Source: Candidatus Bathyarchaeia archaeon
GTDB taxonomy: Archaea; Thermoproteota; Bathyarchaeia; Bathyarchaeales; Bathycorpusculaceae
NCBI GenBank assembly: GCA_049970895.1
Contig: JBMFMB010000017.1
Coordinates: 1-30,599 of the forward strand
DNA: 30,599 nucleotides
Direction of reading: 5' to 3'
The notes beneath the pieces were generated by a model, which saw only the letters and a list, made by a program, of their open reading frames with translations, did not search any database and was not told the origin of the DNA. Positions 4,369 through 24,739 of the stretch are shown one piece after another (position 1 is the stretch's first letter; each line of letters begins with the position of its first letter). Both the position numbers and the translations under genes were made by a program.

Positions 4369-4410
4369 AAAGGTGAATGCTTTTTAAGTCTGATACTCAA
4401 AGTTGAGGGT

Positions 4411-5827: not shown

Positions 5828-5848
5828 ATAAACCTCCTAGCCCATTAC

Positions 5849-6538: not shown

Positions 6539-6595
6539 ACCTTTTCCACCTTCACTACTAATTAGGGTTAGAAGTAATTTAGCTCTGCTGCTCAC

Positions 6596-7204: not shown

Positions 7205-7206
7205 AA

Positions 7207-7584: not shown

Positions 7585-7678
7585 CTCCCTCTCCGTTTCC
7601 ACGCAGATATATAGGTGTTTTCAAATAATTATTGTTTGTTCAAAGATAAAATAATTTAGGTGAAATGAGGCGCCTACG

Positions 7679-8698
7679 ATGCCAGCAAAAACAAGGGAGG
7701 GATACTGTCTAGGCATTGAGAGCACTGCCGACGACTTCAGCGTTGGAATAGCCAACTTTAAAGGAGAAATCTTGGCAAACGCGATAAGCGCCTATTTACC
7801 TCAAAAGGGGGGAATACATCCAAGAGAAGCCGCACGGCACCACGCCGAAGCTGCAAACAAGGTTCTGGAAGAGGCATTCCAAAAAGCTGGAATAAAACCA
7901 AAAGACATAACAGTCATTGCCTTCTCCCAAGGACCTGGGTTGGGTCCATGCCTCAGAACAGGCGCCACAGTTGCAAGAGCCCTAGCCTCTTATCTGGGTG
8001 TTCCTCTTGTGGGCGTCAACCACTGTGTGGCTCACATAGAAATAGGCAAATTGAAAACTGGCGCCTTAGATCCGGTCACGCTTTACGTTTCGGGCGGGAA
8101 CACCATAGTGGCGGCTTTTGATTCTGGACGCTACAGAGTTTTCGGTGAAACATTAGATATAGCCCTTGGAAACTGTCTAGACGTTTTCGCAAGAGAAGCT
8201 GGCTTGAGGCAAAAACCAGGCGAACCTTTCGGGGCTATTGTGGAAAAACTCGCGAAGAATGGACGGAAGCTTATTCCACTGCCATACACTGTTAAAGGGA
8301 TGGATATGTCCTTCAGCGGCTTGCTCACGGCAGTCGTTAACTTGCTCAAGAAAGGTGAGGATAGGCTGGAGGATTTGTGCTATAGCCTCCAAGAAACAGC
8401 CTTCTCGATGGTTACTGAAGTCACGGAGAGAGCCCTAGCCCACACAGAGAAAAGGGAAGTGTTATTGACGGGTGGTGTTGCCGCGAATAAGAGGCTTCAA
8501 GAAATGGTTAAGTTGATAGCTGAGGAGCACGACGCTGAATTCTGTGTTGTGCCAAGTCAGTTTGCCATAGATAATGGCGCCATGATAGCTTGGACTGGTG
8601 TTTTAGCCTTCACTCATGGCATTGTAACGCCAATTCATGAGAGCTTTGTGAAGTTGAGGTGGCGGCTTGAAGAGGTTGAAGTTCCTTGGGTGAAATAA
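7679..8698 (+). CDS. kae1: KEOPS t6A synthase subunit Kae1
   Basis: GIESTA, GGIHPREAA.HH, GPGLGPCL, VNHCVAHIE, LYVSGGNT, GGVAAN, DNGAMIAW. Confidence 0.96.
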   Translation: MPAKTREGYCLGIESTADDFSVGIANFKGEILANAISAYLPQKGGIHPREAARHHAEAANKVLEEAFQKAGIKPKDITVIAFSQGPGLGPCLRTGATVARALASYLGVPLVGVNHCVAHIEIGKLKTGALDPVTLYVSGGNTIVAAFDSGRYRVFGETLDIALGNCLDVFAREAGLRQKPGEPFGAIVEKLAKNGRKLIPLPYTVKGMDMSFSGLLTAVVNLLKKGEDRLEDLCYSLQETAFSMVTEVTERALAHTEKREVLLTGGVAANKRLQEMVKLIAEEHDAEFCVVPSQFAIDNGAMIAWTGVLAFTHGIVTPIHESFVKLRWRLEEVEVPWVK

Positions 8699-9348
8699 GC
8701 CAGCCTCAGCTGATTAAAAGGGGAGCAGAAGCGTGCCTATACCTTGCGGATTGGCATGGCAGAAAAGTAGTGATGAAGAAGAGGTTGCCCAAAAAGTATA
8801 GGGCTCCAGCCCTAGACGAGCATATAAGAGCCTATAGAACAATTCACGAGCCTCAACTAATGCATGAAGCTAAAAAGGCGGGGGTGCCCACACCAACAAT
8901 TTATTTGATTGACGCAAAAAACGCCACAATCATAATGGAGTACATCGAGGGCGAACAAGTAAAAAGGTTGTTAGCTAAGGTTTCAGAGGGCGAAAGGCAA
9001 GTTCTGTGCCGCAAAATAGGCGAGTTGATAGGCAAATTGCACAAAAACGGCATAGTTCACGGCGACTTAACAACTTCAAATATGATTCAAACTTCTGAGG
9101 GCAAAATATTCTTTGTTGATTTTGGGCTTGGCGAGAAAACAAAGGAGCTTGAGGCAAAAGGCGTGGATTTACACTTAATGAAGAGGGCGTTACAAAGCAC
9201 GCATTTCCAGTTTGCCGAAAAATGCTTTAACGCCATAATTGAGGGTTATGTAAGCGTTTTAGGGGTTAAGGAAGTGAAAAACGTTTTAGACAAAATAAGG
9301 GAAATAGAAAGGAGAGGACGATACATAGCCGAAAGAAGGAGTGAATAA
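8686..9348 (+). CDS. bud32: KEOPS kinase/ATPase Bud32
   Basis: GAEA, KKRLPKKYR, HGDLTTSN, DFGL, RGRY. Overlaps the end of kae1. Confidence 0.95.
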   Translation: MGEISQPQLIKRGAEACLYLADWHGRKVVMKKRLPKKYRAPALDEHIRAYRTIHEPQLMHEAKKAGVPTPTIYLIDAKNATIIMEYIEGEQVKRLLAKVSEGERQVLCRKIGELIGKLHKNGIVHGDLTTSNMIQTSEGKIFFVDFGLGEKTKELEAKGVDLHLMKRALQSTHFQFAEKCFNAIIEGYVSVLGVKEVKNVLDKIREIERRGRYIAERRSE

Positions 9349-9349
9349 G

Positions 9350-9563
9350 ACAATAAAAACAGTTTGGTGCAAAACCCTCCACAATAAAGCTAAGAGCAAG
9401 AATGTGAGATTTGTTAAAGAATTACATGAAGAGCCTTGGGGTGGGGAACACGCCACATTTCATGGATCCAGACGGAAACCTTTTAGAAATTGTGCAGATT
9501 AATTGGGAAAAATATTTCAGCGTGTCAGCTGAAGAAGCCAAAAAGAAACGTGGGCCAACATGA
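9350..9563 (+). pseudogene. Frameshifted C-terminal remnant of a VOC/glyoxalase-bleomycin resistance family gene
   Basis: Manual translation: ...KSKNVRFVKELHEEPWGGEHAT / +1 shift at TTT 9458-9460 / FMDPDGNLLEIVQINWEKYF...KRGPT*. The stop overlaps the rdgB ATG. The N-terminal half is absent. Confidence 0.8.
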
Positions 9564-10150
9564 GCTTTCAATTGAAAGGCAAAGTAATATTCTTCGCAAC
9601 AAACAACATCAACAAGTTCAACGAAGCCCGCAAAATTTTAGGCAGCTATAAGATAGCCGTAGGCATGATAAGGGTTAAAACCCTTGAAATCCAAAGCGAA
9701 AGCCTCGAAGAAATTGCAAAAATAAGCGTCATCCACGCCTTCAAACAGTGCGGTCTCCCCCTCATAGTTGAGGACGCTGGACTTTTCGTTGAAGCCTTGA
9801 ACGGTTTTCCGGGCCCATACTCATCCTACGTTTACAAGACTATAGGCAACGAGGGATTGTTGAGGCTTATGGAGAAAAATGCTAACAGAAAGGCAAAGTT
9901 TCAGTCGGTGGTGGCGTACTTCTCTGAAGAATTGGACGCCCCAATATGTTTTAAGGGAGAAGTTTTGGGCGAGATAACCGAACAACCACGAAGAGAAAGC
10001 CATTATGGCTTTGGTTTTGACCCAATATTTAAGCCAGCTAACAGCCAAAAAACCTTTGCCGAGATGAGCATCGCCGAAAAGAACAAGTATTCCCATAGAG
10101 CAAAGGCTTTCAGAGAGTTTGCAAAATGGTACAAAAGCCTAAAGGTTTAA
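9560..10150 (+). CDS. rdgB: XTP/dITP diphosphatase (Ham1/RdgB)
   Basis: FATNNINK, EIQ, VEDAGLFVEALNGFPGPYS, GFGFDPIF, KNKYSHR. Confidence 0.95.
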   Translation: MSFQLKGKVIFFATNNINKFNEARKILGSYKIAVGMIRVKTLEIQSESLEEIAKISVIHAFKQCGLPLIVEDAGLFVEALNGFPGPYSSYVYKTIGNEGLLRLMEKNANRKAKFQSVVAYFSEELDAPICFKGEVLGEITEQPRRESHYGFGFDPIFKPANSQKTFAEMSIAEKNKYSHRAKAFREFAKWYKSLKV

Positions 10151-10223
10151 GTGGAAAAGAGCCATAGAAGGTCTTAAATATCCGTCTAACATCGCTCTTA
10201 CAGAACTGAAAAGGGATAACAGT

Positions 10224-10664
10224 ATGCCAAAACAGGAAAAGGGCAAATCCCATTCAACAAGACCGGTTAGCAAACGCCCCCCAAGCTGGTGCAAATACCA
10301 GCCAGAAGAAGTGGAAGCCCTCATCATTAAGCTGGCGAGAGAGGGTCATCCTCCAAGCCGCATTGGGACAATTCTTAGGGACCAGTACGCCATTCCATTA
10401 GTCAAGCCTTTAACTGGCAAGACCATAACTCAGATTCTTAAAGAGGCTGATCTTGCGCCTTCAATACCGGAAGACCTTGGGAACTTGCTTAAGAAGGCAG
10501 CGAGGCTTTCAGCCCACCTTGAAAAGCATAAGAAGGACTTGCACAACAAGAGGGCTTTGCAGCTTATAGAAGCCAAAATTCACAAGCTTGCAAGATATTA
10601 TAAGCGGGAGGGTGTTTTGCCACCAAACTGGAAGTACGAGCCAAAAATAGCGTCAATAGCCTAA
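10224..10664 (+). CDS. rps15: 30S ribosomal protein S15 (uS15)
   Basis: GKSHSTRP, PSRIGTILRDQYAIP, IPEDL, HKKDLHNKRALQLIEAKI. Confidence 0.96.
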   Translation: MPKQEKGKSHSTRPVSKRPPSWCKYQPEEVEALIIKLAREGHPPSRIGTILRDQYAIPLVKPLTGKTITQILKEADLAPSIPEDLGNLLKKAARLSAHLEKHKKDLHNKRALQLIEAKIHKLARYYKREGVLPPNWKYEPKIASIA

Positions 10665-10725
10665 TTAATGCATCCCCGCTCACAGCCTCCATTTTAAATT
10701 CCTTGAATTTGCATCATTGTGTGTG

Positions 10726-12192
10726 ATGGAAATGGGGTTGGACGAAAAACAAACAGCAAAGTTCTTTGAAAGCGTTTCAATTGCCGCAAAGACGATCTTG
10801 GAAGTTGTTAAGGAAGATGGCTTTATCCATGTTTTTTCGCATTTGGATGCTGATGGTGTGGCTGCTGCCGGCATTGTCGGGAAAGCCCTTTACAGGCTTG
10901 ACGCAAGGTTTCGCATCAGGATAACCCAGTGGGTTGATGAAAAACTGGTGGCTGAAATACTTCAGGAAAAGCCTCAAATGGTTATTTTTACAGACCTTGG
11001 AAGCGACTACGCAAACTTGTTAAGACAGAAAACTCAGGACATAAAAGTTGTTGTTTTGGACCACCATCAGCTTGGCGAGGGATTAAGCGGCGATTTTCCG
11101 TGCGTTAATCCTCACTTGTTTGGCATTGATGGGGCACGGGACATTAGCAGCGCCGGTGTAGCCTATTTTGTGGCTAAAGAGATTGACAAGGTTAACGTGG
11201 ATTTGGCTCCGATAGCCGTTGTTGGGGCGCTCGGGGACTTGCAGGACAAATATGAACAGCGAATGCTCGGAGGACTTAACGAGAAAATAGTGGAAGATGC
11301 AAAAAGCCAAGGATTGCTAACCGTTGAGAAGGACCTAATATTTTTCGGTAGGGAAACCCGCCCAATCCATAAAACATTAGCGTCCACAACAAACCCCTTT
11401 ATTCCAGGCATAAGCGGAGAAGAAGACAAAAGTTTGGCCTTTCTAGCGAGTATTGATATAAAGCCAAAATACGGTGATAAGTGGCGGGCGTTAAGAGACC
11501 TCTCAGAAGAAGAGAAAAAGAGACTTTGTTCGGCACTGGCTGATTACTTGCTCTCGAGGGGGTTGCATTACGAGATATCCAACCTCATAGGACATGTTTA
11601 CACCCTCAGCAAGGAAGAACCTTGGACACCGCTAAGAGATGGGAGGGAGTTCGCCGTCTTGCTTAATGCTGTTGGGCGCATGGACAAGCCCGGCGTTGGC
11701 GTGGCGGTTTGCATGGGTGATAGAGGATCCGCCCTGGAAGAAGCCAGCAAAATCCTTGAGGAGTATAGGCGGACAATTAATAGGTACTTGGGCTGGATTA
11801 TGGAGAGACCCGAAAGAATAAGGGAAATGGAAAACATTTATGTTGTTTATGGCGAAGACTTCATTGACGATAAAATTGTTGGTGCCATCTCATCAATTCT
11901 AACAACAAGCCTTCCAAACCCGGAAAAACCCCTCATTGCCTACGCAGACGTCAAAGAAGAAGGACTCGTGAAGGTTTCAGCAAGAACCATAGACGCAACA
12001 ACCTCCAAGGGCGTTAATCTTGGAGAAGTGATGCAAATTGCAGCCGAGAAATGCTTGGGGAAAGGCGGAGGTCACAATGTGGCGGCTGGTGCCCAAATCC
12101 CAATAGAAAATGTTGAAACTTTCATAAAGCTTGTTAATGAGCTTGTTGGGAAGCAGTTGGCTGGGGGAGAAAAATGGAAGCTGAAATCATAA
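10726..12192 (+). CDS. RecJ/Cdc45-like DHH nuclease (GAN-type, GINS-associated)
   Basis: SHLDADG, FTDLG, LDHH, GALGDLQD, DHHA1 GGGHNVAAG. Lies in the conserved position between rps15 and pcc1. Confidence 0.88.
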   Translation: MEMGLDEKQTAKFFESVSIAAKTILEVVKEDGFIHVFSHLDADGVAAAGIVGKALYRLDARFRIRITQWVDEKLVAEILQEKPQMVIFTDLGSDYANLLRQKTQDIKVVVLDHHQLGEGLSGDFPCVNPHLFGIDGARDISSAGVAYFVAKEIDKVNVDLAPIAVVGALGDLQDKYEQRMLGGLNEKIVEDAKSQGLLTVEKDLIFFGRETRPIHKTLASTTNPFIPGISGEEDKSLAFLASIDIKPKYGDKWRALRDLSEEEKKRLCSALADYLLSRGLHYEISNLIGHVYTLSKEEPWTPLRDGREFAVLLNAVGRMDKPGVGVAVCMGDRGSALEEASKILEEYRRTINRYLGWIMERPERIREMENIYVVYGEDFIDDKIVGAISSILTTSLPNPEKPLIAYADVKEEGLVKVSARTIDATTSKGVNLGEVMQIAAEKCLGKGGGHNVAAGAQIPIENVETFIKLVNELVGKQLAGGEKWKLKS

Positions 12193-13768: not shown

Positions 13769-14404
13769 ATGACGACATTGTCCACGAAGAAGGTAAGGGA
13801 TAGGTGGCGCAGCAAGATATGGTATACGGTTGTTGCTCCACCATACTTTGGAAATGTTGAGTTAGGCGCAATTCCAGCAGATGAACCTGAAAAACTCATT
13901 GGAAGGGTTATGGAGGTAACGCTTTACGATATCACTGGCGACTTTTCCCATCAGTACATGAAATTGTATTTCCAAATAACCCAGGTTGAGGGAAAAACAG
14001 CCCGTACCATGTTTAAGGGGCATGAATACTCAAGGGATTACCTTAGAAGTCTTGTGAGGCGGAGGACAACGAAGGTTGATGGAATCTTCAACGTTTCAAC
14101 TAAAGACGGCTACAGATTTAGAGTAGCGGTCTGCGCCTTCACTCTCACAAGAATTAAGACCTCGCAGGAGCGTGCCATACGCAAAATTATGGCGAAAATA
14201 GTTGAGGAGAAAAGTGCAGCCCTAACAATGGACCAATTTGTCCAAGAAATGGTTCTTGGAAAAATCGCATCAGACATATATAATGAAGCTAGAAAAATTG
14301 TGCCACTCCGCCATGTTGGCGTCAGAAAGTCTAAGCTTCTAATGCAGGTGGCTCAAATACAAGCGTTACAAGTGCCACTGCAAAGGGTCGAGGAGCAAAG
14401 TTAG
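13769..14404 (+). CDS. rps3ae: 30S ribosomal protein S3Ae (eS1)
   Basis: RDRWRSKIWY, LIGRVMEVTLYDITGD, RDYLRSLVRRRTTKVD, IVPLRHVGVRKSK. Confidence 0.95.
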   Translation: MTTLSTKKVRDRWRSKIWYTVVAPPYFGNVELGAIPADEPEKLIGRVMEVTLYDITGDFSHQYMKLYFQITQVEGKTARTMFKGHEYSRDYLRSLVRRRTTKVDGIFNVSTKDGYRFRVAVCAFTLTRIKTSQERAIRKIMAKIVEEKSAALTMDQFVQEMVLGKIASDIYNEARKIVPLRHVGVRKSKLLMQVAQIQALQVPLQRVEEQS

Positions 14405-14946
14405 CCTTCAACAAGCTTTTTACCATATTCATAGCCCATTTCAAAGGCTTTTAGGTTCAGCGCTTCAGTTCCCTTTGGAACATTAGCCCTAATAGACTCT
14501 TTTAGGGCTTCCTTATCCACCATGCTTGTTATTGCTGTGAAGGCTCCTAACATAACAACGTTTGCAACTATTCTTCTTCCAAGCTCTTCAGCCATTCTCG
14601 TGGCTGGAACCCGAAAAACTTTCACGCCTTTAAGTTCCCTCTCGTTGGGGATCATGTCCGGGTCGAGTATTATTGTTCCGCCCTTTTTCACGGTCTCTGC
14701 ATACTCGTTGTAGGCGTGTTGGGACATCACCACCAAAATGTCTGGCTCGGTAACTTTTGGAAAGTCTATTTCTTCATCGGCTATTACAACTTCTGAGCGA
14801 CATGCTCCGCCCCGCGACTCTGGTCCATAAGACTGCGTTTGCACAGCGTGCTTCCCACAGTATATGCATGCGGCCATAGCCACCATAATCCCGGACTTAA
14901 TTATTCCTTGACCGCCGAAACCTGCAAATCTAATTTCAACACGCAT
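14401..14946 (-). CDS. korC: 2-oxoacid:ferredoxin oxidoreductase gamma subunit
   Basis: IRFAGFGGQG, QSYGPESRGG, ANVVMLGA, NLKAFEMG. Confidence 0.9.
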   Translation of the reverse strand: MRVEIRFAGFGGQGIIKSGIMVAMAACIYCGKHAVQTQSYGPESRGGACRSEVVIADEEIDFPKVTEPDILVVMSQHAYNEYAETVKKGGTIILDPDMIPNERELKGVKVFRVPATRMAEELGRRIVANVVMLGAFTAITSMVDKEALKESIRANVPKGTEALNLKAFEMGYEYGKKLVEG

Positions 14947-14958: not shown

Positions 14959-15798
14959 TTATTCTTCAATTTCTTTCATTATTTGCGCCATTTTATTATG
15001 GAGAAGCTCCTCATAAGTTGGCTTTTCAATATCTACAAATTCTCCAACAACTATTTTTTCAGGGGTTATTTCCGCCTCTGCAGGATCCGAAAAGTTGGCG
15101 ATTACCGAAACTTTCTTAAACCATTCCATCATTTCGAGGCCTGTTCGCATTTTGTTGTGGCGTCCATAGATTTCTGGGCATGGTGATATAACTTCTATGA
15201 AGGAGAAGCCCTTCCTTTGTAGAAGCTTCTTGATAGACATTGTTAGCATTCGCACGTGGAGGGTTGTCCACCTTGCCACATAAGTTGCTCCGGCTGCCGC
15301 TGCTAAATGGACAAGGTTGAAGGGGTGCTCAATGTTCCCGTAAGGTGTTGTCGTTGTTAAAGCATTTAGTGGTGTTGTTGGTCCAACTTGTCCGCCTGTC
15401 ATTCCGTAGTTGAAGTTGTTGGCGCATATCACTTTGATTCCAATGTTTCTCCTTGCAGCGTGGATGAAGTGGTTTCCCCCTATCGCGAAAAGGTCGCCAT
15501 CACCACTTATAACAACAACTTCGAGTTCCGGATTTGCAAGTTTAACGCCTGTTGCAAAGGCTATTGGACGCCCGTGGGTCGCGTGGAAAGAATCCACATT
15601 TGTGTAGCCAGCTGCTCGCCCAATACAACCTATTCCTGAAACGACAACAAGCTTGTCCAAGTTTATCTGCAACTCGTCAAGCGCATGCACAAAAGCGTTA
15701 AGGATTATGCCGTTCCCACATCCGGTGCACCATATGTGGGGCATCATGGTGGCTCTCAGATATTTTGAAAAGGGATGTTGCTCAACAGCTTCTGTCAT
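14959..15798 (-). CDS. korB: 2-oxoacid:ferredoxin oxidoreductase beta subunit (TPP-binding)
   Basis: WCTGCG, SGIGC, HGR, GDGD...NNFNYGMTGGQ, SPCP. Confidence 0.92.
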   Translation of the reverse strand: MTEAVEQHPFSKYLRATMMPHIWCTGCGNGIILNAFVHALDELQINLDKLVVVSGIGCIGRAAGYTNVDSFHATHGRPIAFATGVKLANPELEVVVISGDGDLFAIGGNHFIHAARRNIGIKVICANNFNYGMTGGQVGPTTPLNALTTTTPYGNIEHPFNLVHLAAAAGATYVARWTTLHVRMLTMSIKKLLQRKGFSFIEVISPCPEIYGRHNKMRTGLEMMEWFKKVSVIANFSDPAEAEITPEKIVVGEFVDIEKPTYEELLHNKMAQIMKEIEE

Positions 15799-16949
15799 TT
15801 GCTATACCTCCCGATAAATTCGAGAATCTCCATTGGCGTATGCGGCTCCTCACCCAACTTCGGCATGTGGAAAACTGGTGTTCCTTTTGCAGCCCTTTCA
15901 ACCTCCCTAGCCATCTGCCCACAATTCATTTCCGGAACAATTATTGCTTTGGCATTTTCAGCAGCCTTCGCCACGTGCTTTTCTGGGAAGGGCCAAAGGG
16001 TTATTGGGCGGAGGAGCCCGGCTTTTACACCTTGCTGTCTTGCTTTTCTCACAGCGCTTAGGGCTGCCCGCGCAACTATTCCGTAGGCAAAAACCACAAT
16101 TTCGGCGTCATTCAACATATGCTCCTCAACACGGATTATTTTGTCAGCGTTCTTCCTTATTTTGTCGCAGAGTCTCTGCACAAGCCGCATCTGAACCTCT
16201 GAGCTTTGTGTACGTGGATAACCATGCTCATCGTGGGTTAGGCCTGTAGCATGAAAGCGGAAGCCCTCACCGAAACAAGCCATAGGTGGAACCAAGTCAT
16301 CGTCTGGCATGAAAGGTGCATACTTTTCTGGCGGCGTGTTAGGCTTTTTGCGGTTAACAATCCTTATCTCTTCAGCTGGTGGTATAACCACTTTCTCCCA
16401 CATGTGAGCAACAACCTCATCAGCCATCACAAAAGTTGGAACACGATAGGTTTCAGCCAAGTTGAAGGCTTCAATCGTCAGATCAAACATTTCCTGAACA
16501 GAAGAGGGGGCTAAGGCTATAATTTCGTAATCGCCATGGGAACCCCATTTTGCTTGCATAACATCCTGCTGTCCCGGAAGGGTTGGCTGTCCAGTGCTTG
16601 GGCCTCCACGCATTACGTCAACGATTACACAAGGGGCTTCTGTCATGGCAGCCAAGCCTATGTTCTCCTGCATTAGACTAAAGCCAGGCCCAGAGGTGGC
16701 TGTCATAGCCTTCAAGCCAGCGTAGGATGCGCCTATAACTGCGGCTATTGAGGCTATCTCGTCTTCCATTTGAATGTAGATTCCTCCAACTTTCGGCATT
16801 CTGGCCGCTAAATGCTCCGCTATTTCTGTTGCTGGTGTTATTGGGTATCCAGCGAAGAACCGGCATCCGGCTGCTATGGCGCCTTCTGCACATGCAATGT
16901 CGCCGCTCATGAAGTGCACACCGGTCAAAACTGCTTTTTTACCAGCCAT
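15795..16949 (-). CDS. korA: 2-oxoacid:ferredoxin oxidoreductase alpha subunit
   Basis: FFAGYPITP, QMEDEIAS, TATSGPGFSLMQE, RGGPSTGQPT, EMNCGQ. Confidence 0.92.
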   Translation of the reverse strand: MAGKKAVLTGVHFMSGDIACAEGAIAAGCRFFAGYPITPATEIAEHLAARMPKVGGIYIQMEDEIASIAAVIGASYAGLKAMTATSGPGFSLMQENIGLAAMTEAPCVIVDVMRGGPSTGQPTLPGQQDVMQAKWGSHGDYEIIALAPSSVQEMFDLTIEAFNLAETYRVPTFVMADEVVAHMWEKVVIPPAEEIRIVNRKKPNTPPEKYAPFMPDDDLVPPMACFGEGFRFHATGLTHDEHGYPRTQSSEVQMRLVQRLCDKIRKNADKIIRVEEHMLNDAEIVVFAYGIVARAALSAVRKARQQGVKAGLLRPITLWPFPEKHVAKAAENAKAIIVPEMNCGQMAREVERAAKGTPVFHMPKLGEEPHTPMEILEFIGRYSK

Positions 16950-17228
16950 TTAACATCCATCCTTACATTGTTTCTCTTTAACGAAAATTGCAAAGTCTGG
17001 GCAAACAGCTGTGCAGAAACTGCATAGAATACAACTATTTTCATCAACAACTCTTGGGGGGTGAACCCCTCTCGCGTTAATTTCGTCAGATTCCTCTAAA
17101 ACTTTTTTGGGGCAGTATTGGATGCAGAAGCCGCATCCCTTACACTGGTCTTTTAATATGTGGATTTCAGCCTTCGGCCTGGAAACCTTCTCAATGTTTA
17201 ATGGTGTTCTCCAAAATCTTTCCGGCAT
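16950..17228 (-). CDS. korD: 2-oxoacid:ferredoxin oxidoreductase delta subunit, 2x[4Fe-4S]
   Basis: CKGCGFCIQYCP and CILCSFCTAVCPDFAI. Directly upstream of the alpha subunit. Confidence 0.88.
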   Translation of the reverse strand: MPERFWRTPLNIEKVSRPKAEIHILKDQCKGCGFCIQYCPKKVLEESDEINARGVHPPRVVDENSCILCSFCTAVCPDFAIFVKEKQCKDGC

Positions 17229-17229
17229 T

Positions 17230-19635
17230 TTAGGTTCCCCCGGCTTTTTGGAAAACTTTTTTGGCGAGTTCTATCTCCTCTGGGGTTACGCTTTCCACGA
17301 TCTTCTGCATTTCGTAAATTTTGGAGGCGAACCTTTCTCCTTCAGCTGCTGAAACCCATAACAATTGAAGCCTCTCCTTGTTTAACCCGTTTTGTTCCAT
17401 CTTTTTCCATAAACGTTCTACACGCCTCTGAGTGTGATAGTTGGCATTTATATAGTGGCAGTCTCCAGGGTGGCAGCCCGCCACGATGACTGCAGCAGCA
17501 CCTCTCGCGAAGGCCCTTTCAACAAATTTTGGAGCTACCCTTCCAGAGCACATCGTTCTAATTATCCGCACGTTTGGTGGGTATTGCATTCTACTGACTC
17601 CAGCGAAGTCTGCACCGGCATAAGCACACCAGTTGCAGCAGAAGGCAACAATTTTCTTATCAGCATCGTGCTCCGTAACAGCGTCTATTTGAGCTATTAT
17701 CTGCTCGTCTGTAAAATGATTCTGCGTCAACGCGTCGGAAGGGCACTCAGCAGCGCATGTTCCGCATCCTCCGCAAGCAGCCTCAACGATTTCGATGCGT
17801 TTAAGCTCCTTGTTTAGAGTTATCGCATTATAGGGGCAAACCTTTGTGCAAAGCCCACAAGCCTTACACTTTTCCACGTCCAAAATCGGCGTGATAGCCT
17901 CAACCGTAACCTTGCCCTTAGCCATAAGAATGCCAGCTCTGGCTGCGGCTGCGCTTGCCTGTGTTACGCTGTCTTTTATGTCCTTTGGGGCTTCAGCACA
18001 TCCAGCGAAGAATATGCCTCCGGTTGCAGCGTCCACTGGTCGGAGCTTTGGATGGGCTTCCATGAAGAATCCGTCTTGCGTTCTGGAAAGTGTCAGTAAT
18101 CGCTGTATTACTTCGCTGTCTTTCCGCGGCTCAAGCCCAACGGATAGAATAACCATGTCGAAGTTCATTTTGTATGGTTCTTTCAGGAGCGTGTTTTCGC
18201 CTATTAGCCAAAGGTTGCGGGTCCTCTTATCCTCAATTATTTCTGCTGGAAGCCCCCGGATGAATATTACGCCTTCCTTTTTCGACCTCTTGTAGAGGTC
18301 TTCGAAACCCTTCCCATACGCGCGGATGTCAACGTAAAAGACGTAGATTTCAGTTTCAGGCCAATGCTCCTTAATGAGGAGACTGTCCTTTATTGTGTTC
18401 ATGCAACAAACATTACTGCAGTAAGTTCGTCCAGTCCTATTAGAGCGGGAGCCAACACATTGTATAAAGGCTACACGCTTCGGAACCTTCATATCACTAG
18501 GCCTTATCAACCTCCCACCAGATGGACCGCCAGCATTAATCAGCCTTTCAAATTCAAGGGATGTAATCACGTTTAGATATTTGCCATAACCATACTGTGG
18601 AAGCGCTGAAGGGTCAAAAACGTCTGCGCCCGTCGCCACTATTATTGTTCCCACTTCTAGTTCTATAGTTTCAGGTTTCATTGTGAAGTCTATGGCTTGT
18701 CTTTCGCAAGCCTTAACGCATTTGTCGCACACCATCACGCCGTCTTTGTTGAGGCATAGGTTCATGTCAATAATGTATGTTGATGGGACAGCTTGTGCAA
18801 ACGGCGTGTAAATGGCGTGTCTTAGGGCTAGGCCAGCGTCAAACTCGTTTGGCGCTGTCATGGGACAAACTTTCGAGCATTCGCCACACGCTGAACAGTC
18901 TTCCTTCACATATCGCGGTTTCTTTAAGACTTTGACTCGGAAGTTGCCTATGTATCCTTTTACATCGATAACTTCACTGTTGGTTAATAGTTCAATGTTT
19001 GAATGGCGCCCTACATCCGACATTTTAGGCGCAAGAATACATATGGAACAGTCCATTGTTGGGAAAGTCTTGTCTATCCTTGCCATCATCCCGCCGATGC
19101 TCGGCTCCCTCTCCACCAAATAAACTTTATAACCAGTATCCGCAAGGTCCAAAGCTGCTTGAATGCCTGCAACGCCCCCACCAATGATTAATGCTTTCCT
19201 TATAATTGGCACTTCAATTTCGCTGGCTGATCTAAGTAGGGCTGCCTTTGCCACAGCCATTTTAACAATGTCTTTAGCCTTTTCTGTTGCCGCCTTCCTA
19301 TCGTAGAGGTGAACCCAACTACACTGCTCACGTATGTTAGCCATCTCAAAAAGGTACTTGTTTAACCCAGCCTCTTCACACACTTTCCGAAATGTTGGTT
19401 CATGAAGACGCGGAGAACACGAAGCAACAACCACACGGTTGAGCCTATACTCCCTAATATCATTCTTTATAAGCGCTTGTCCCTGGTCTGAACACGTATA
19501 GCGGTAATCCCTTGCCAAAACAACATGGGGAAGTGTTGCAGCAAACTCTGCAACTTCTTTGCAGTCAACAGAACCAGCGATGTTTAAACCGCAATGACAA
19601 ACATAAACTCCAATGCGAATTTCCTCTTTTGCCAT
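17230..19635 (-). CDS. hdrA: HdrA-MvhD fusion (flavin-based electron-bifurcation module)
   Basis: GVYVCHCGLNI, SCSPRLHE, GGGVAG, TFPTMDCSICI, inserted ferredoxin, LEFER, CVGSR...YCSNVCCMNTIK, C-terminal ferredoxin, then MvhD (FCCNWCAY, MCSGR, GCHPGDCHY). Confidence 0.95.
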   Translation of the reverse strand: MAKEEIRIGVYVCHCGLNIAGSVDCKEVAEFAATLPHVVLARDYRYTCSDQGQALIKNDIREYRLNRVVVASCSPRLHEPTFRKVCEEAGLNKYLFEMANIREQCSWVHLYDRKAATEKAKDIVKMAVAKAALLRSASEIEVPIIRKALIIGGGVAGIQAALDLADTGYKVYLVEREPSIGGMMARIDKTFPTMDCSICILAPKMSDVGRHSNIELLTNSEVIDVKGYIGNFRVKVLKKPRYVKEDCSACGECSKVCPMTAPNEFDAGLALRHAIYTPFAQAVPSTYIIDMNLCLNKDGVMVCDKCVKACERQAIDFTMKPETIELEVGTIIVATGADVFDPSALPQYGYGKYLNVITSLEFERLINAGGPSGGRLIRPSDMKVPKRVAFIQCVGSRSNRTGRTYCSNVCCMNTIKDSLLIKEHWPETEIYVFYVDIRAYGKGFEDLYKRSKKEGVIFIRGLPAEIIEDKRTRNLWLIGENTLLKEPYKMNFDMVILSVGLEPRKDSEVIQRLLTLSRTQDGFFMEAHPKLRPVDAATGGIFFAGCAEAPKDIKDSVTQASAAAARAGILMAKGKVTVEAITPILDVEKCKACGLCTKVCPYNAITLNKELKRIEIVEAACGGCGTCAAECPSDALTQNHFTDEQIIAQIDAVTEHDADKKIVAFCCNWCAYAGADFAGVSRMQYPPNVRIIRTMCSGRVAPKFVERAFARGAAAVIVAGCHPGDCHYINANYHTQRRVERLWKKMEQNGLNKERLQLLWVSAAEGERFASKIYEMQKIVESVTPEEIELAKKVFQKAGGT

Positions 19636-19642
19636 TCTCCAC

Positions 19643-21082
19643 TCACCTTAAACCTAAAGACTTTAGGTAACAATCAATAGAAGCGGCGGCAATTTTCCCA
19701 GAACATATAGCCTCAATAATTGAGGCTGGACCAGTTACGGCGTCCCCGCCGGCAAACACGCCTTTAAGGGTTGTCTCCATGGTTAATGGGTTAACCCAAA
19801 TAGTGCCATCCTCGTTTAGCTCAACTTCTTTCGGCAAAAAAGACAGATCTGGAACCTCACCAATCGCCAAAATCACCACGTCCGCCTCTTTAACAAATTC
19901 AGAACCCTCAATAGGAATCGGTTTCCTCCTTCCTGTCTCATCTAACCCGCCTAACTGCATTCGGACAAATTCAACAGCAGAAACCTTTCCGCCATTGCCC
20001 AGAAAACTTTTAGGAGAAACCAAAAACTCGATTTTTACACCCTCATTTTGAGCCTCCTTAACTTCCCATGGGTTTGCAGGCATCTCCTCCACGGATCTCC
20101 GATAAAATATCGTTGCCTCTCCAGCACCACATTTTAGGGCTGTTCTTGCAGAGTCAACTGCAACGTTCCCACCGCCAATCACAACCACGCGTTTGCCCCT
20201 AACGTCCGGCATCTTTCCAGAATTAACCATCCAGAGAAAGTCTAAAGCATGCATCACCCCATTTAAGTCGACACCTTCAACCCTCAACTCTTGCCCTTTA
20301 TGAGCGCCTACACCGATAAAAATAGCATCATACCCTTGCCTCAAACTACTAAAATCAACATCCTTACCAACAGCAACACCAGTTTCTATTTCTACGCCAA
20401 GATCTTTCAAAACTTCTATGTCCTTGTCCAAAAATTCCCTCGGGAGACGATAAGTTGGCAAACACTTTCTCAACATCCCGCCCGACTCTGAAAGAACTTC
20501 AAAAACCGTAACCTTATAGTTTTTTAGAGCTAAGTCGTGTGCAACAGTAAGCCCTGCTGGCCCTGAGCCTATAACTGCAACCTTCCTATTTGATAATTCT
20601 GCTTGAGCTTCCTTCTTTTTCTCGCCTAAAAATTCCTTCCTCAGCTTTTCAGCCTCGTTTATGACTTTGTTTAGATTTAACCCCGCGCGCTCCGGATGGA
20701 AACACGCAAGAATCGTGACTAAGGGGAGGGGGGATACCTTAACAATTTTTCTTATGGCATTTTCAAACACTCGCCCATATCCCCATTTAACAGCAAACTT
20801 TTTGACGTGAAGGAATATTTCTGGCGGCTTCAGGGCTTGTGGGCAATGCCTACAACAACGGTAACACCAAGCACAAAGCCAAAGCTCATCTGAAGCCAAA
20901 GCATATTCAATGCTTAAGAAAATCTTTTCAAGAATATTTCTCGGGTTATATTCTCCTTTTAGGAGTCCCGCCATGGGGCAGCTTGCCGTGCATATTCCAC
21001 ATTCAAAACAGAACTTGAGTTTCTCAGCGTCTGGATATTCGGCGAGAACCTCTTTGTAGGTCACGGTTTTTGCCGTGCTCAA
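19643..21082 (-). CDS. Chimeric HdrC-like 2x[4Fe-4S] domain plus GltD/NfnB/SudA-like FAD/NAD(P)H oxidoreductase
   Basis: N-terminal CFECGICTASCP and WLCAWCYRCCRHCPQ, then IGSGPAG, GGML...LPTYRLP, IGGGNVAVD, YRRS, FAGGDAVTGP. Confidence 0.85.
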   Translation of the reverse strand: MSTAKTVTYKEVLAEYPDAEKLKFCFECGICTASCPMAGLLKGEYNPRNILEKIFLSIEYALASDELWLCAWCYRCCRHCPQALKPPEIFLHVKKFAVKWGYGRVFENAIRKIVKVSPLPLVTILACFHPERAGLNLNKVINEAEKLRKEFLGEKKKEAQAELSNRKVAVIGSGPAGLTVAHDLALKNYKVTVFEVLSESGGMLRKCLPTYRLPREFLDKDIEVLKDLGVEIETGVAVGKDVDFSSLRQGYDAIFIGVGAHKGQELRVEGVDLNGVMHALDFLWMVNSGKMPDVRGKRVVVIGGGNVAVDSARTALKCGAGEATIFYRRSVEEMPANPWEVKEAQNEGVKIEFLVSPKSFLGNGGKVSAVEFVRMQLGGLDETGRRKPIPIEGSEFVKEADVVILAIGEVPDLSFLPKEVELNEDGTIWVNPLTMETTLKGVFAGGDAVTGPASIIEAICSGKIAAASIDCYLKSLGLR

Positions 21083-21122
21083 TTTAATTCGCCTTACTAT
21101 TATTGGGAATGCTCACGGATAT

Positions 21123-21144
21123 AAACTTTACAAATGTAAAGTTT
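21123..21144. promoter_or_regulatory. Inverted repeat AAACTTTACA-aa-TGTAAAGTTT, a putative operator in the divergent promoter
   Basis: 10-bp arms are exact reverse complements. TATA-like boxes flank it (TTTATA on the minus strand at ~21120-21125; TTTTATAA on the plus strand at 21163-21170). Confidence 0.6.
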
Positions 21145-21209
21145 TAAATCACAAGCAACTCCTTTTATAATCACAAAGACAATTAAACCATAAGCACGGG
21201 GAACAACAA

Positions 21210-22235
21210 ATGGACGAAGTCAAAGTTGTTTTATATGGGGTTGGCACAGTTGGAAGCCTCATAGCGAGGGCACTTCTTGAAAAAAGGGGGGTAAAGATAG
21301 TTGGTGCAATTGATGTTGCAAAGGACAAAGTTGACAAGGATTTAGGCGAAGTTTTAGGCTTAAACAAGAAAATCGGCATAATAGTTTCAAGCGACGCTGA
21401 CGCTGTACTTGCGAAGACCAAGCCAGACATAGCCATCCACGCCACATCATCCTATCTTAGAGACACGTACCCACAGATAGCCTCCATTATTAAGCATGGC
21501 GTAAATGTGATATCTACATGCGAAGAACTCTCCTATCCATACTGTTCAGAACCAAGAATCGCAGAGGAACTAGATAAACTAGCTAAAAAGCATGACGCAA
21601 CAGTTTTGGGCACGGGGATAAATCCGGGATTTTTAATGGACACCCTTGTGATAACACTGACGGCGGCGTGCCAAAAAATAGAGAAAATTGAAGCTGTTAG
21701 GGTTATGAACGCCGCTAAAAGACGCTTACCTTTCCAAAAGAAGATAGGCGCGGGCTTAACAGTTGAGGAGTTTAAACAAAAAATTGAAAAGGGAGAAATA
21801 ACTGGACACGTTGGGCTTGTGCAGTCCATTGCAATGATTGCAGCCGCTTTGGCATGGAAACTTGATGAAATAAAGGTTGACCCAGTTGAGCCAGTAATAG
21901 CCAAAGAACAAGTGAAAAGCGATTTCATAAAAGTTGACGCTGGAAAAATTGCAGGTTTGAGGCAAACGGCAAGAGGCATTATGAAAGGCAAAGAAGTCAT
22001 AGTCCTAGACTTTAAAGCCTACATTAGCGCAGAAGAAGAGTATGACGCCATAACAATCACTGGTGTCCCAACAATAAAGCAGAAAATTCAGCCTTGTATC
22101 CACGGAGACGCAGGAACGGTGGCGGTAATCATAAACTCTATTCCAAAAGTTTTGAAGGCACCAGCTGGCTTGGTCACAATGAAAGATTTGCCTGTTCCCT
22201 CAGCCGTGGTTGAGGATATGCAGAAATACTTGTAA
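21210..22235 (+). CDS. NAD(P)H-dependent amine dehydrogenase, 2,4-diaminopentanoate dehydrogenase (Ord)-like / DapB N-terminal family
   Basis: YGVGTVG Rossmann motif, NVISTCEEL.YP, TVLGTGINPGFLMD, KKIGAG, GHVGL, GD.GT...IPKV..A..GLVTMKDLP. Confidence 0.82.
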   Translation: MDEVKVVLYGVGTVGSLIARALLEKRGVKIVGAIDVAKDKVDKDLGEVLGLNKKIGIIVSSDADAVLAKTKPDIAIHATSSYLRDTYPQIASIIKHGVNVISTCEELSYPYCSEPRIAEELDKLAKKHDATVLGTGINPGFLMDTLVITLTAACQKIEKIEAVRVMNAAKRRLPFQKKIGAGLTVEEFKQKIEKGEITGHVGLVQSIAMIAAALAWKLDEIKVDPVEPVIAKEQVKSDFIKVDAGKIAGLRQTARGIMKGKEVIVLDFKAYISAEEEYDAITITGVPTIKQKIQPCIHGDAGTVAVIINSIPKVLKAPAGLVTMKDLPVPSAVVEDMQKYL

Positions 22236-22253: not shown

Positions 22254-23036
22254 GTGATGAGGTTGAGGTTTCAAGTTGATATAAACTGTGATTTGGGGGA
22301 AAGCTTTGGCGCATTCAAGGTTGGAAACGACGCGGAAATAATGCCCTACATAACTTCTGCTAATGTTGCGTGTGGTTTTCACGCTGGAGAACCCTTAACA
22401 ATGGCGCAGACCATAGCTCTGGCAAAAAAGCACGGGGTGGCTGTGGGTGCTCACCCCGGATATCCAGATCTAATGGGGTTTGGAAGAAGGGAGATGCAAT
22501 TAACAAGCGAAGAAGCGAAAAGTTATATTATCTACCAGATTGGTGCGCTTCAAGCGTTCGCCAAAGTTTTCGGTGTCAACCTTCAGCATGTAAAACCGCA
22601 TGGGGCTATGTATAACATGGCGTTAAAGGATAGAGAGCTTTCTAGGGCTATAGCTGAAGCCATCGCAAAGCTAGATCTTGACCTTATTGTTTTTGCACCT
22701 CCAAAATCGGCATTGGCTGAAATGGCAGCAAACACTGGACTGCGGGTTGCCTACGAGTTTTTCGCCGACAGAGCCTACAACTCGGATGGGAGCCTAGTTT
22801 CTAGGAAAATGCCCGGTGCTATAATTGAGAAGCCAGACAAAGCCTTAAAGCGAGCCCTACGAGCCGTAAAGGAAGGTGTAGTTGAGGCTTTTGACGGCAC
22901 ACTTGTGGAACTTGGACAAGTGCACACTATCTGTGTTCATGGTGACACGCCAACAGCGGTCAAGTTAGCTGAAGCTTTAAAGAAGGGACTTGTTAAAGCT
23001 GGGATAGAGGTTAAACCAGTAAGCCAATTTATTTAA
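22254..23036 (+). CDS. pxpA: 5-oxoprolinase subunit A (LamB/YcsF)
   Basis: DINCDLGESFG, SANVACGFHAG, GAHPGYPD, HVKPHGAMYN, FADRAY, TICVHGD. Confidence 0.94.
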   Translation: MMRLRFQVDINCDLGESFGAFKVGNDAEIMPYITSANVACGFHAGEPLTMAQTIALAKKHGVAVGAHPGYPDLMGFGRREMQLTSEEAKSYIIYQIGALQAFAKVFGVNLQHVKPHGAMYNMALKDRELSRAIAEAIAKLDLDLIVFAPPKSALAEMAANTGLRVAYEFFADRAYNSDGSLVSRKMPGAIIEKPDKALKRALRAVKEGVVEAFDGTLVELGQVHTICVHGDTPTAVKLAEALKKGLVKAGIEVKPVSQFI

Positions 23037-23045
23037 TGATGCCCC

Positions 23046-23792
23046 ATGAAAGACGCTGTTTACCCGTCCGCACGGTATTTTCCCTTTGGCGACAGCGCAC
23101 TGGTTGTTGAGTTTGGCGATATAATTGATTTGGCGGTAAATAGCAAGGTTATTGCTTTAAATGAGGCTCTTTTGAATGCAGGAATAAGAGGAGTCGAGGA
23201 AATTGTCCCGACTTATAGGTCGCTGCTCATTCGTTATGAGCCGGCTGAAATATCCTACGAACAACTTGTTTTGCGTGTTAAGGAAATTGAAAAGATGCTG
23301 GGAGAAAAGCCAGCAAAAACAGATGGAAGAAAGCTTGTTGTTCCAGTGGTTTATGGTGGGGTTTATGGACCAGACTTGGCTTATGTGGCTCAGTATCATG
23401 GGTTAAATGAGGAGCAAGTTGTTAGGCTTCATTCCGGAAAAGAGTATAGGGTTTACATGATAGGCTTTGTCGCTGGCTTTCCATATTTAGGCGATGTTCC
23501 GGAAGAAATTGCAACACCACGCCTTGAAACCCCACGCTTAAGAGTGCCAGCCGGATCCGTTGGGATTGCAGAAAAACAGACGGGAATATATCCATGCGAG
23601 GCTCCTGGAGGCTGGCGGATAATAGGCAGGACCCCCATAAAACTTTTTGACCCGCAGTGGCAGCCTCCAGCCTTGCTAAAACCCGGAGACATCGTCAAAT
23701 TCAATCCAATTTCAGAAAGTGAATTCAGGAAGATTGAAGAGCTTGTCAAGATGGGCACTTACAAATCGCAATTTGAGGAGCAGACAAAATGA
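23046..23792 (+). CDS. pxpB: 5-oxoprolinase subunit B (KipI/AHS1)
   Basis: GDSALVVEF, VPTYRSL, PVVYGG..GPDL, YMIGFVAGFPY, PAGSVGIA, PGGWRIIGRTP. Confidence 0.93.
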   Translation: MKDAVYPSARYFPFGDSALVVEFGDIIDLAVNSKVIALNEALLNAGIRGVEEIVPTYRSLLIRYEPAEISYEQLVLRVKEIEKMLGEKPAKTDGRKLVVPVVYGGVYGPDLAYVAQYHGLNEEQVVRLHSGKEYRVYMIGFVAGFPYLGDVPEEIATPRLETPRLRVPAGSVGIAEKQTGIYPCEAPGGWRIIGRTPIKLFDPQWQPPALLKPGDIVKFNPISESEFRKIEELVKMGTYKSQFEEQTK

Positions 23793-24739
23793 GTGTTTTC
23801 CAAGTTTTGAAGCCCGGGTTCTTCACAACAGTGCAGGATTTGGGTAGATATGGCTACCTCAAATATGGTGTTCCGATTTCTGGGGCTATGGACTCGTTTT
23901 CCATGGTCGCCGCAAATCTGCTGGTTGGCAATAGCCCCAACGCTGCATGTTTAGAAATAACTCTCATAGGACCAGAGTTTCAAGCATTGGCGGATACGCA
24001 GATTGCCATAACTGGTGGGAGAATTTCTGTGGAAATTAATGGAGAAGAGGCGTCCATGTGGCAAACATTAACCGTTCATAAAGGGGATTTTGTTTCCCTG
24101 GGAAAAGTGGAGAGCGGATGCAGATGCTATCTTTCCATTAGGGGTGGAATAAACACGCCTATGATTCTTGGAAGTAGGTCAACGTATGTGCGTGGCAGAT
24201 TCGGCGGCATAGAAGGCAGACAGTTAAAGACCGGAGACGTAATCGAAGGTTTCAGCGCCCCACTTTTGAAAGCTGGTTTTAAAATGCCGGAAAGCCTCAT
24301 GCCAAACTTCACAAATAACTTTACGGTACATGTTGTTTTGGGACCACAAGCCGACATGTTCGCAGAAAAGGGCATAGAAAAATTCCTTTCAAACCATTAC
24401 AAGGTTACAATAGAGTCCGACCGCATGGGCTACCGCCTCGAGGGACCAGCAATAGAGCATAAGGGAAAAGCGGAAATAGTTTCGGATGCCCTTCTGCCCG
24501 GGGCAATTCAGGTTCCCCGAAATGGAAAACCAATTATAATAATGAAGGATGCCCAAACGACTGGAGGCTATCCCAAAATAGCTGTTGTTGTAACGCCAGA
24601 TTTGGATAGGCTTGGACAGGCTAAGCCTAATGACACCATAAAGTTTTCGGAAATAACATTAAAAGAGGCTCATGAAAAGCTTTTAGAATATCGGAAAACG
24701 CTTGCTAGTCTGTCTGAGAAGCTAATTCAATTAACTTAA
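23789..24739 (+). CDS. pxpC: 5-oxoprolinase subunit C (KipA/AHS2)
   Basis: TTVQDLGR.G, SGAMD, LEITL.GP, GSRST, SDRMGYRL, GAIQVP..GKPII, DAQTTGGYPKI. Confidence 0.93.
   Translation: MSVFQVLKPGFFTTVQDLGRYGYLKYGVPISGAMDSFSMVAANLLVGNSPNAACLEITLIGPEFQALADTQIAITGGRISVEINGEEASMWQTLTVHKGDFVSLGKVESGCRCYLSIRGGINTPMILGSRSTYVRGRFGGIEGRQLKTGDVIEGFSAPLLKAGFKMPESLMPNFTNNFTVHVVLGPQADMFAEKGIEKFLSNHYKVTIESDRMGYRLEGPAIEHKGKAEIVSDALLPGAIQVPRNGKPIIIMKDAQTTGGYPKIAVVVTPDLDRLGQAKPNDTIKFSEITLKEAHEKLLEYRKTLASLSEKLIQLT

Follow-up and report, generated by a model that had tools for sequence, protein, structure and literature searches.

A stand-alone HdrC-domain/NfnL-like iron-sulfur flavoprotein and its HdrA and 2-oxoacid oxidoreductase operon in Bathyarchaeia

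How might an electron-splitting enzyme built on HdrA be connected to NADP(H)? The question is raised by an open reading frame in a 30,599-nucleotide (nt) stretch of DNA (the window: positions 1 to 30,599 of contig JBMFMB010000017.1, assembly GCA_049970895.1) from a Candidatus Bathyarchaeia archaeon, whose genome assembly comprises 1.34 Mb in 79 contigs and is 97% complete. The frame (19643..21082, reverse strand; TTG start) is the first gene of a six-gene operon and specifies a 479-residue HdrC-domain/NfnL(GltD)-like iron-sulfur flavoprotein, here called FUS. FUS is probably the link between NADP(H) and an electron-splitting enzyme of the HdrA kind, whose gene lies beside those of a 2-oxoacid oxidoreductase. 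HdrA is one of only four scaffolds known for flavin-based electron bifurcation; docking modules set what each HdrA complex couples. Bathyarchaeia are an abundant, uncultured group of archaea with an energy metabolism that is known largely by inference.

Architecture of the fusion protein

Judged by its alignments, FUS is a chimera: an HdrC-type domain is followed by the cysteine-depleted second half of a Fer4_20 domain and by NfnL/GltD-type flavin adenine dinucleotide (FAD) and NADP-type nucleotide domains. The HdrC-type dicluster domain comprises residues 19-103 (20774..21028, on the reverse strand, as are all segments of FUS) and holds motif A, CFECGICTASCP (C25, C28, C31 and C35-P36; 20975-21010), and motif B, WLCAWCYRCCRHCP (W68, C70, C73, C76 and C80-P81; 20840-20881); homology to HdrC predicts two [4Fe-4S] sites on these eight conserved cysteines. 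The Fer4_20 remnant (residues 104-135; 20678..20773) includes PLPLVTILACFHPE at residues 118-131 (20690-20731). The FAD/NAD(P)H flavoprotein part, with its two Rossmann folds, is marked by Pyr_redox_2 (9e-31) and by matches in the PDB, and takes up residues 160-479 (19643..20605); it contains GSGPAG for FAD (residues 172-177; 20552-20569), the GxGxxA-type nucleotide motif GGGNVA (residues 303-308; 20159-20176) and YRRS (residues 327-330; 20093-20104). An earlier note, made from the letters of the window, had pointed out the HdrC-style cysteine motifs as well as GSGPAG, GGGNVA and YRRS, and translation of the respective sub-ranges bears out each of them.

Pfam places Fer4_8 at residues 22-82 and Pyr_redox_2 at 167-460, and finds no Fer4_20 in FUS at E<=0.01. 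Residues 17-104 match three NCBIfam HdrC models (2.5e-17 to 1.7e-14), all under the family cut-offs (TIGR03290, 63.2 bits vs 160; NF041779, 55.6 vs 350; NF041890, 53.8 vs 270); the rest of the protein matches GltD/NfnB-type models, also all under their cut-offs (PRK12771, the best at 1.8e-103, 347 bits vs 516; TIGR01316, 301 vs 472). The five top PDB matches of residues 1-165 are all HdrC chains, ranging from 7.5e-16 for the best of them, 5odc_C, to 4.2e-13; the next match, a NuoI-type ferredoxin, reaches only 5e-4. A profile of 12 family members matches 5odc_C at 2.4e-23 over positions 19-109. When the N-terminal 165 residues of nine family members are aligned by hhalign with 18 HdrC-size proteins, the probability is 99.9 (E 5.3e-34, columns 9-116); with ten Fer4_20-type N-termini it is 98.5 (E 3.6e-15, columns 76-175). 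Thus Pfam, NCBIfam, the PDB and hhalign concur with the earlier note that the N-terminal domain is HdrC-type, and neither a generic ferredoxin nor Fer4_20.

The HdrC and Fer4_20 profile matches overlap in a "C-x3-CP + helix" element that is common to both families, and it is in this shared element that the alignments locate the join. Profile positions 70-80 align with the first cysteine motif of dihydropyrimidine dehydrogenase (DPD) and GltD, and positions 104-135 with the second Fer4_20 half of NfnA/StnC (PlP..vCphPCeeaC): the remnant aligns to PfPasigrvCphPCeeaC of 9bov_A, and also to 9n5u_A and 8oh5_C. Column for column, the remnant also lines up with a canonical paralog from this genome (574 residues; Pfam Fer4_20, 1.7e-19), P118, P120, C127 and P130 being common to the two. 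Three of the four motif cysteines are absent from FUS, leaving C127 as the only cysteine of the second Fer4_20 motif. Over the 45 residues with which the aligned flavoprotein half begins, the fusions have 0-3 cysteines, vs 3-4 in 59 HdrL proteins. The earlier note had read this region as a domain swap that left a vestige. The vestige is real; what was replaced is the N-terminal half of Fer4_20, not the whole domain. The family offers a clear example of Fe-S "connector" domains being swapped at homologous CP-helix elements.

In residues ~160-479, FUS has 40-55% identity with the NfnL-like domains of NfnA (9n5u_A, 1.1e-89; 9bov_A, 1.2e-88) and StnC (8oh5_C) and with NfnL (5jca_L, 6.3e-79; 4ylf_B). 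An AlphaFold2 model built on the 12-member alignment has a predicted local distance difference test score of 89.2 and a predicted template-modelling (TM) score of 0.89. Foldseek ranks 5jca_L first for this model (TM 0.70); VIA-align gives Z scores of 39.2 for 9bov_A, 38.3 for 5jca_L (model residues 27-475 on chain residues 48-472) and 37.8 for 4ylf_B. YRR(S/T) is common to FUS and 9n5u_A, 9bov_A and 5jca_L. Since GGGNVA and YRR(S/T) are common to FUS and its NADPH-dependent relatives, it is reasonable to infer that FUS prefers NADP(H).

The structural likeness to NfnL (Z 38.3 and 37.8, as above) suggests a further role for the flavin: the FAD of FUS might, like that of NfnL in NfnSL, bifurcate as well, splitting the electrons of NADPH between the HdrC-type clusters and another one-electron acceptor such as the [2Fe-2S] cluster of MvhD. 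Passages of PMC9012536 raise a two-site idea of this kind for HdrA-NfnB fusions of anaerobic methanotrophic archaea (ANME-1). We consider it very improbable for FUS. The operon encodes no NfnS-like subunit, and the NfnS/NfnA-like gene of this genome stands beside a canonical NfnL-like gene on another contig (C21). Moreover, the closest sequence relatives of FUS are the NfnL-like domains of NfnA/StnC, in which the FAD sits at the end of the chain, an arrangement that the consulted parts of PMC11829005 describe as incompatible with bifurcation. According to the same source, NADPH simply enters through the NfnA/StnC flavoprotein module, which hands on electrons singly to [4Fe-4S] clusters; because these nearest solved relatives use the module in that way, a non-bifurcating FAD in FUS itself is supported.

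The family and its conservation

FUS is not an artefact of assembly. Its family has well over 100 full-length members, mainly from Bathyarchaeia. The closest named relatives come from metagenome-assembled genomes (MAGs) of Candidatus Bathyarchaeia; named members outside that group include proteins from a Candidatus Methanoliparum and from a Bacteroidales MAG. The best 120 of 7998 scored homologues are 63-100% identical to FUS and nearly all 470-516 residues long, and Fer4_8 is found in all except four that are truncated at the N-terminus. Among 1.84 billion representatives, residues 1-104 have 235 matches at E<=1e-10; fusions or their fragments come at the top, followed by HdrC-size proteins at 30-45% identity, and 15 of the 150 listed matches also match the flavoprotein half. 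A longer fused form carrying residues 1-135 was not found at E<=1e-10 among 120 candidates, which is weak evidence. Of 121 sampled genomes from the class, 24 have a match at E<=1e-20; in seven of these the open frame is at least 476 residues long and reaches the remnant, and the others are ordinary HdrC genes. One public run, perhaps that of the source sample, has the interval 19400-21245 on a single 2803-nt contig that departs from the window at 4 letters; fragments in a run from a different study extend over 20138-20898. The public runs containing this stretch are labelled hot-springs metagenome, and none of the 22 that are listed is an RNA run. The worry of the earlier note that the fusion might be peculiar to one assembly is thereby answered: other family members, genomes and metagenome contigs carry it.

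The earlier note had also proposed separate trees for the two halves, and in both the fusions group together. In the N-domain tree (155 rows), 18 of 19 fusion rows form one clade (support by the Shimodaira-Hasegawa-like approximate likelihood ratio test, SH-aLRT, 82-86, not starred), separate from 121 HdrC-type rows; one fusion, P0252, is placed elsewhere, and several "HdrC-size" rows within the fusion clade are truncated fusions. The flavoprotein-half tree (95 rows) unites all 21 fusions in one clade (96, starred), with Bathyarchaeal HdrA-GltD proteins and the same-genome paralog as its weakly supported nearest neighbours. The two trees point to a single origin of the family. The N-domain tree also contains a separate clade (99, starred) of 20 representatives (P0139-P0261; 270-334 residues) with two tandem HdrC-like domains.

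The conservation of the cysteine and nucleotide motifs is far beyond chance. Each of the eight motif cysteines is kept in 123-125 of 125 aligned family members; GSGPAG is found in 121, GGGNVA in 119, YRRS in 120 and YRR(S/T) in 122 of them. In the remnant, C127 is retained in 124 of the 125, and H129 and E131 in 119 each, which argues that this segment is under selection rather than decaying.

The operon and the proposed function of FUS

Downstream of FUS, and on the same strand, are five closely spaced genes, the successive gaps in the operon being 7, 1, 0, -4 and 12 nt. The first, 7 nt from FUS, encodes an 801-residue HdrA2-type HdrA with a C-terminally fused MvhD (17230..19635; NF040770, 1278 bits vs a cut-off of 1100), the putative docking partner of FUS. 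It is followed by genes for the subunits of a 2-oxoacid:ferredoxin oxidoreductase (KOR): a KorD-like delta subunit with 2x[4Fe-4S] (16950..17228; Fer4 domains; NF042987, 4.1e-19, below cut-off), a KorA-like alpha subunit (15795..16949; NF006412, 594 bits vs 411), a KorB-like beta subunit, which is the thiamine pyrophosphate subunit (14959..15798; NF007207, 1.7e-80, below cut-off), and, as the last gene, a KorC-like gamma subunit (14401..14946; NF006323, 248 bits vs 235). Residues 4-653 of the partner HdrA align to 5odc_A 2-649 (E 4.7e-258) and residues 659-787 to MvhD, 5odc_D; by these alignments it is complete, with every domain of the bifurcating enzyme and MvhD fused. The six-gene operon contains neither hdrB nor hdrC (there is no CCG-domain gene in it), nor any NfnS-like or GltB-like gene.

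Two other Hdr clusters of the same genome, on contig C7, each have their own HdrC and HdrB, and their own HdrA and Mvh genes. At one locus on that contig (L007; G000:C7:42001-61953, 1295-11130, reverse strand) an NAD(P)H module, Hdr and hydrogenase are encoded together, in the order GltD-like (574 residues, intact Fer4_20 and a C-terminal 2x ferredoxin), MvhD-like (250 residues), a 1010-residue HdrA with two flavin-binding regions, MvhD, HdrC, HdrB, MvhG and MvhA. The C21 locus (L008; G000:C21, 3-5765, reverse strand) has an NfnL-like gene with full Fer4_20 (6.3e-45) beside an NfnS/PyrK-like gene, and continues with a 410-residue polyferredoxin-MvhD fusion, a thioredoxin-reductase-like protein and an HdrD-like protein with Fer4_8 and CCG.

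The adjacency of fusion and HdrA is invariant. HdrA(-MvhD) is the next gene in all eight genome loci with a stand-alone fusion, with Kor genes following in six, and HdrA-MvhD adjoins the fusion in each of the seven sampled genomes that carry it. For metagenomes, the 80 best loci were taken (N-domain identity 53-99%), HdrA being judged where at least 600 nt lie downstream and the full gene order where at least 4.5 kb do. HdrA is next in 49 of 49 of the former, 48 of which pass the strict rule; the other, L134, fails it because HdrA is called as starting 70 nt inside the fusion gene. HdrA-MvhD, KorD, KorA and KorB follow in 36 of 36 of the latter. In two genomes of a divergent Bathyarchaeia family (L169, 1-4818; L170, 174-5445), fusion and HdrA-MvhD are divergently oriented and still adjacent, and a 316-residue polyferredoxin takes the place of KorDABC.

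Upstream, and divergent from the operon, lies the gene for a 341-residue member of the 2,4-diaminopentanoate dehydrogenase family (21210-22235, forward strand; DAP_DH_C, 2.1e-53; NF040740, 352 bits vs a cut-off of 400). A homologue is found upstream of the fusion in 63 of the 80 metagenome loci; the enzyme could supply NAD(P)H and a 2-oxoacid, or be a mere conserved neighbour. The genes that come after it (22254-24739, forward strand) encode PxpA, PxpB and PxpC, the 5-oxoprolinase, which makes glutamate. They were rejected as part of the system: PxpA lies upstream in only 31, PxpB in 27 and PxpC in 26 of the 80 loci. The only glutamate dehydrogenase (ELFV_dehydrog) match of the genome, near the start of a contig (G000:C31:437-979, forward strand), is interrupted by an in-frame TAA, has an open frame of only 191 residues, and may be a broken gene or an assembly error.

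Could FUS work by itself, next to hdrA for reasons of co-regulation only? It would then be a soluble NADPH:ferredoxin or NADPH-dependent oxidoreductase (SudA/NfnL-like) using free ferredoxin. FUS is always a separate polypeptide (the missing longer form counts here, weakly), and a two-cluster domain joined to a FAD/NADPH part should suffice for ferredoxin:NADP+ chemistry. However, the adjacency to HdrA-MvhD persists over N-domain identities of 41 to 99%, even where the genes are rearranged and reoriented; the Fe-S domain is of the HdrC type in particular, not that of a generic ferredoxin; and the operon supplies its HdrA with no separate HdrC. We therefore regard solitary action as improbable.

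The reading that we prefer, and hold to be fairly probable in its several steps taken jointly, is that FUS belongs to a soluble redox complex with HdrA at its centre and is the subunit that binds NADP(H). Its HdrC-type domain would dock on HdrA at the site that HdrC takes in HdrABC, and its flavoprotein part would take the functional place of HdrB. Electrons would pass reversibly between NADP(H) and FAD, on through the two [4Fe-4S] clusters to the clusters of HdrA, and so to the bifurcating FAD of HdrA. With an HdrC-type domain in the HdrC site and an NfnL-like part in place of HdrB, it would follow that the NADP+/NADPH couple stands in for the heterodisulfide/thiol couple. The inserted ferredoxin domain of HdrA would handle the low-potential ferredoxin that KorDABC makes or consumes.

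The same genes can be given a simpler role, and this is the principal competitor. KorDABC, HdrA-MvhD and FUS might form a non-bifurcating wire, that is, a 2-oxoacid (or ferredoxin):NADP+ oxidoreductase that runs downhill with no third partner and no energy coupling. The tight packing and strong conservation of the six genes are in keeping with such an enzyme, as is the lack of a third-partner gene among them, and non-bifurcating homologues of HdrA are said to exist (parts of PMC9430772). Operons elsewhere also bear on the matter. In a Fraserbacteria MAG (L044, 6177-10583) and a Hatepunaea MAG (L078, 4534-10770), a GltD-like gene (551-570 residues, intact cysteine motif) lies between KorC and KorA/KorB; these operons are candidate NAD(P)+-linked 2-oxoacid oxidoreductases without HdrA. 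Their order, KorC, GltD-like, KorA, KorB, makes a direct link from a 2-oxoacid:ferredoxin oxidoreductase to NAD(P)+ plausible. Yet these very operons manage without HdrA, so that HdrA would be superfluous in a plain wire, and the partner of FUS is a full HdrA with all the domains of the bifurcating enzyme plus MvhD. A wire would, in addition, waste a drop of ~180 mV (reckoned from standard potentials) in an energy-limited anaerobe, and the genome already has an NfnAB-like pair on C21. On balance we judge the wire unlikely.

If FUS is instead the NADP(H) subunit of a bifurcating HdrA complex, the third leg might run through the [2Fe-2S] cluster of the fused MvhD. The coupling would be reversible, reduced ferredoxin and NADPH together delivering electrons to a mid-potential carrier, for instance to H2 by way of an Mvh-type [NiFe] hydrogenase; we put this forward as a speculation that is unlikely as it stands. 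Reduced ferredoxin and NADPH average near the H2 potential (standard potentials), so that an Mvh hydrogenase is attractive on thermodynamic grounds, and such a coupling would be a [NiFe]/HdrA counterpart of the NADP-specific bifurcating hydrogenases. It would fit amino-acid fermentation, since one NADPH and one reduced ferredoxin arise there for each 2-oxoacid formed and oxidised. More broadly, and tentatively, the six-gene operon may represent an undescribed class of bifurcating/confurcating HdrA enzymes, in which FUS replaces HdrBC, NADP+/NADPH is the higher-potential partner, KOR is the dedicated low-potential partner (possibly in the same complex) and MvhD leads to a third carrier such as an Mvh-type hydrogenase; we think this possible but more doubtful than the role proposed for FUS itself.

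Several facts weigh against assigning FUS to a bifurcating HdrA complex. The six-gene operon has no gene for a third redox partner, and in the more divergent members (L035, L169 and L170) KorDABC is not beside the fusion. Docking of FUS on HdrA is strongly suggested by the invariant adjacency to HdrA-MvhD, which is a matter of gene order and not of physical contact. The [NiFe] hydrogenase large subunit is not enriched, being present in 5 of the 7 fusion-bearing genomes vs 99 of 121 class-wide; the two that lack it are 77-78% complete. With no backing from synteny or co-occurrence, a hydrogenase was set aside as an obligate third partner. F420 was likewise discarded as an unlikely third partner because no match to CofH, needed to make F420, exceeds the cut-off in this genome, which is 97% complete and does carry one FrhB-like gene. 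The proposed assignment does not account for the strong conservation of C127, H129 and E131, and 3 of the 125 members carry C(I/P/L)E(D/S) in place of YRRS, so that the choice of nucleotide may differ within the family. Finally, the alignments disagree about which cluster of FUS neighbours the FAD: by sequence, motif B (C70-C80) falls on Fer4_20 motif 1, whereas at the end points of the VIA structural alignments C35 coincides with DPD residue ~90-91 and residue 27 with NfnI-L residue 48, which would bring motif A to Fer4_20 motif 1; the dicluster fold is pseudo-symmetric.

If the proposed assignment of FUS to HdrA is right, its family records a natural exchange of modules, in which the HdrC "plug" was kept and the heterodisulfide-reducing HdrB was swapped for an NADPH flavoprotein. 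The outcome would be an HdrA enzyme with no need of a thiol cofactor, linking NADP(H) to ferredoxin from 2-oxoacid oxidation in Bathyarchaeia. Should the wider proposal also hold, these archaea would gain a [NiFe]/HdrA route by which to keep NADPH, ferredoxin and H2 in balance in amino-acid fermentation or 2-oxoacid synthesis. The family lends itself to a direct test, by joint expression of the six genes, of whether NADP(H) can serve an HdrA complex instead of a heterodisulfide.

Comparison with known systems

The best match of FUS residues ~104-479, in sequence and in structure, is the NfnL-like domain of NfnA/StnC (9bov_A, 9n5u_A and 8oh5_C) in the Bfu-type NfnABC/Stn transhydrogenases: E is 1e-89 to 1e-75, profile E 1e-125 to 1e-110, and Z 37-39 at 39-43% identity. 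FAD and NADP-type motifs, YRR(S/T) included, are alike. The differences are at the N-terminus and in the setting: NfnA/StnC keep the cysteine-rich second Fer4_20 motif (vCphPCeeaC), and their NfnL-like domains belong to subunits of 950-1180 residues in a flavin mononucleotide-based Bfu complex, whereas FUS, which is paired with HdrA, has an HdrC-type domain instead and retains C127 alone from that motif. NfnL/NfnB of NfnSL and GltD (5jca_L, 4ylf_B, 6s6s and 2vdc) resemble FUS in joining a helical Fe-S domain to FAD and NADPH Rossmann domains; FUS differs from them in lacking a Pfam Fer4_20, in scoring below their family cut-offs, and in having no NfnS/GltB partner in its operon.

With HdrC of HdrABC (5odc_C, 8rvu_c and 7bkb_C), FUS residues ~19-109 have in common both CxxCxxCxxxCP motifs, the YNPR and WLC signatures and the helical spacer, and for both proteins the gene lies beside an HdrA. 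Of HdrC, FUS has the ferredoxin-like domain only (~28-116 of the 184 chain residues); a flavoprotein stands in for the C-terminal part, and the operon has no HdrB. The partner HdrA passes the HdrA2 model and has MvhD fused, as in HdrA2B2C2 of Methanosarcina acetivorans; here, unlike there, HdrB2C2 is absent, FUS is in its place, and F420 is unlikely. A term search of PMC5296606 returned neither "glutamate synthase" nor "Bathyarchaeota", and a single mention of NADPH, in an assay table.

It is known, from portions of PMC9430772, PMC12054007, PMC2702500 and PMC9012536, that GltD-like modules attached to HdrA act as NAD(P)H sites. They include HdrL of Desulfobacterium autotrophicum and other sulfate reducers, with a GltD-like insert in HdrA (excerpts of PMC2702500 and PMC5947623), "type III HdrA" (PMC12054007, in part), the ANME-1 HdrA-NfnB fusions (PMC9012536, in part) and the GltD domain of Moorella HdrA (PMC9430772, in part). 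Our whole-protein profile found 59 loci at which a large HdrA with a GltD-like insert has MvhD next door; these correspond to the published types just named, and were placed in the same flavoprotein-half tree as FUS. HdrL/type III HdrA share with FUS a GltD/NfnL-like NAD(P)H module together with HdrA and an adjacent MvhD, the flavoprotein halves being 36-43% identical. They differ in that the module is inserted in the HdrA polypeptide, after the first motif of the inserted ferredoxin domain, and Fer4_20 is intact (Pfam, in the four proteins checked). FUS is a separate 479-residue subunit, set off from HdrA by a stop codon and 7 nt, and has an HdrC-type domain and a linkage to KorDABC. Its being separate and HdrC-type points to the HdrC site of HdrA rather than to the ferredoxin site. 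The 59 insert-bearing HdrA proteins, from bacteria and archaea, were rejected as fused versions of FUS: they have an intact Fer4_20 and the ordinary Fer4 motif of the inserted ferredoxin domain of HdrA, and no HdrC-type domain.

Neither a stand-alone HdrC-domain/GltD-like protein nor its KOR operon is described in the literature searched, which excluded subscription journals and supplements; reviews of HdrA modules may cover them. Attachment of GltD/NfnL-type NAD(P)H modules to HdrA is thus already known; what we take to be new here is the stand-alone HdrC-domain form of such a module, together with its KOR operon.

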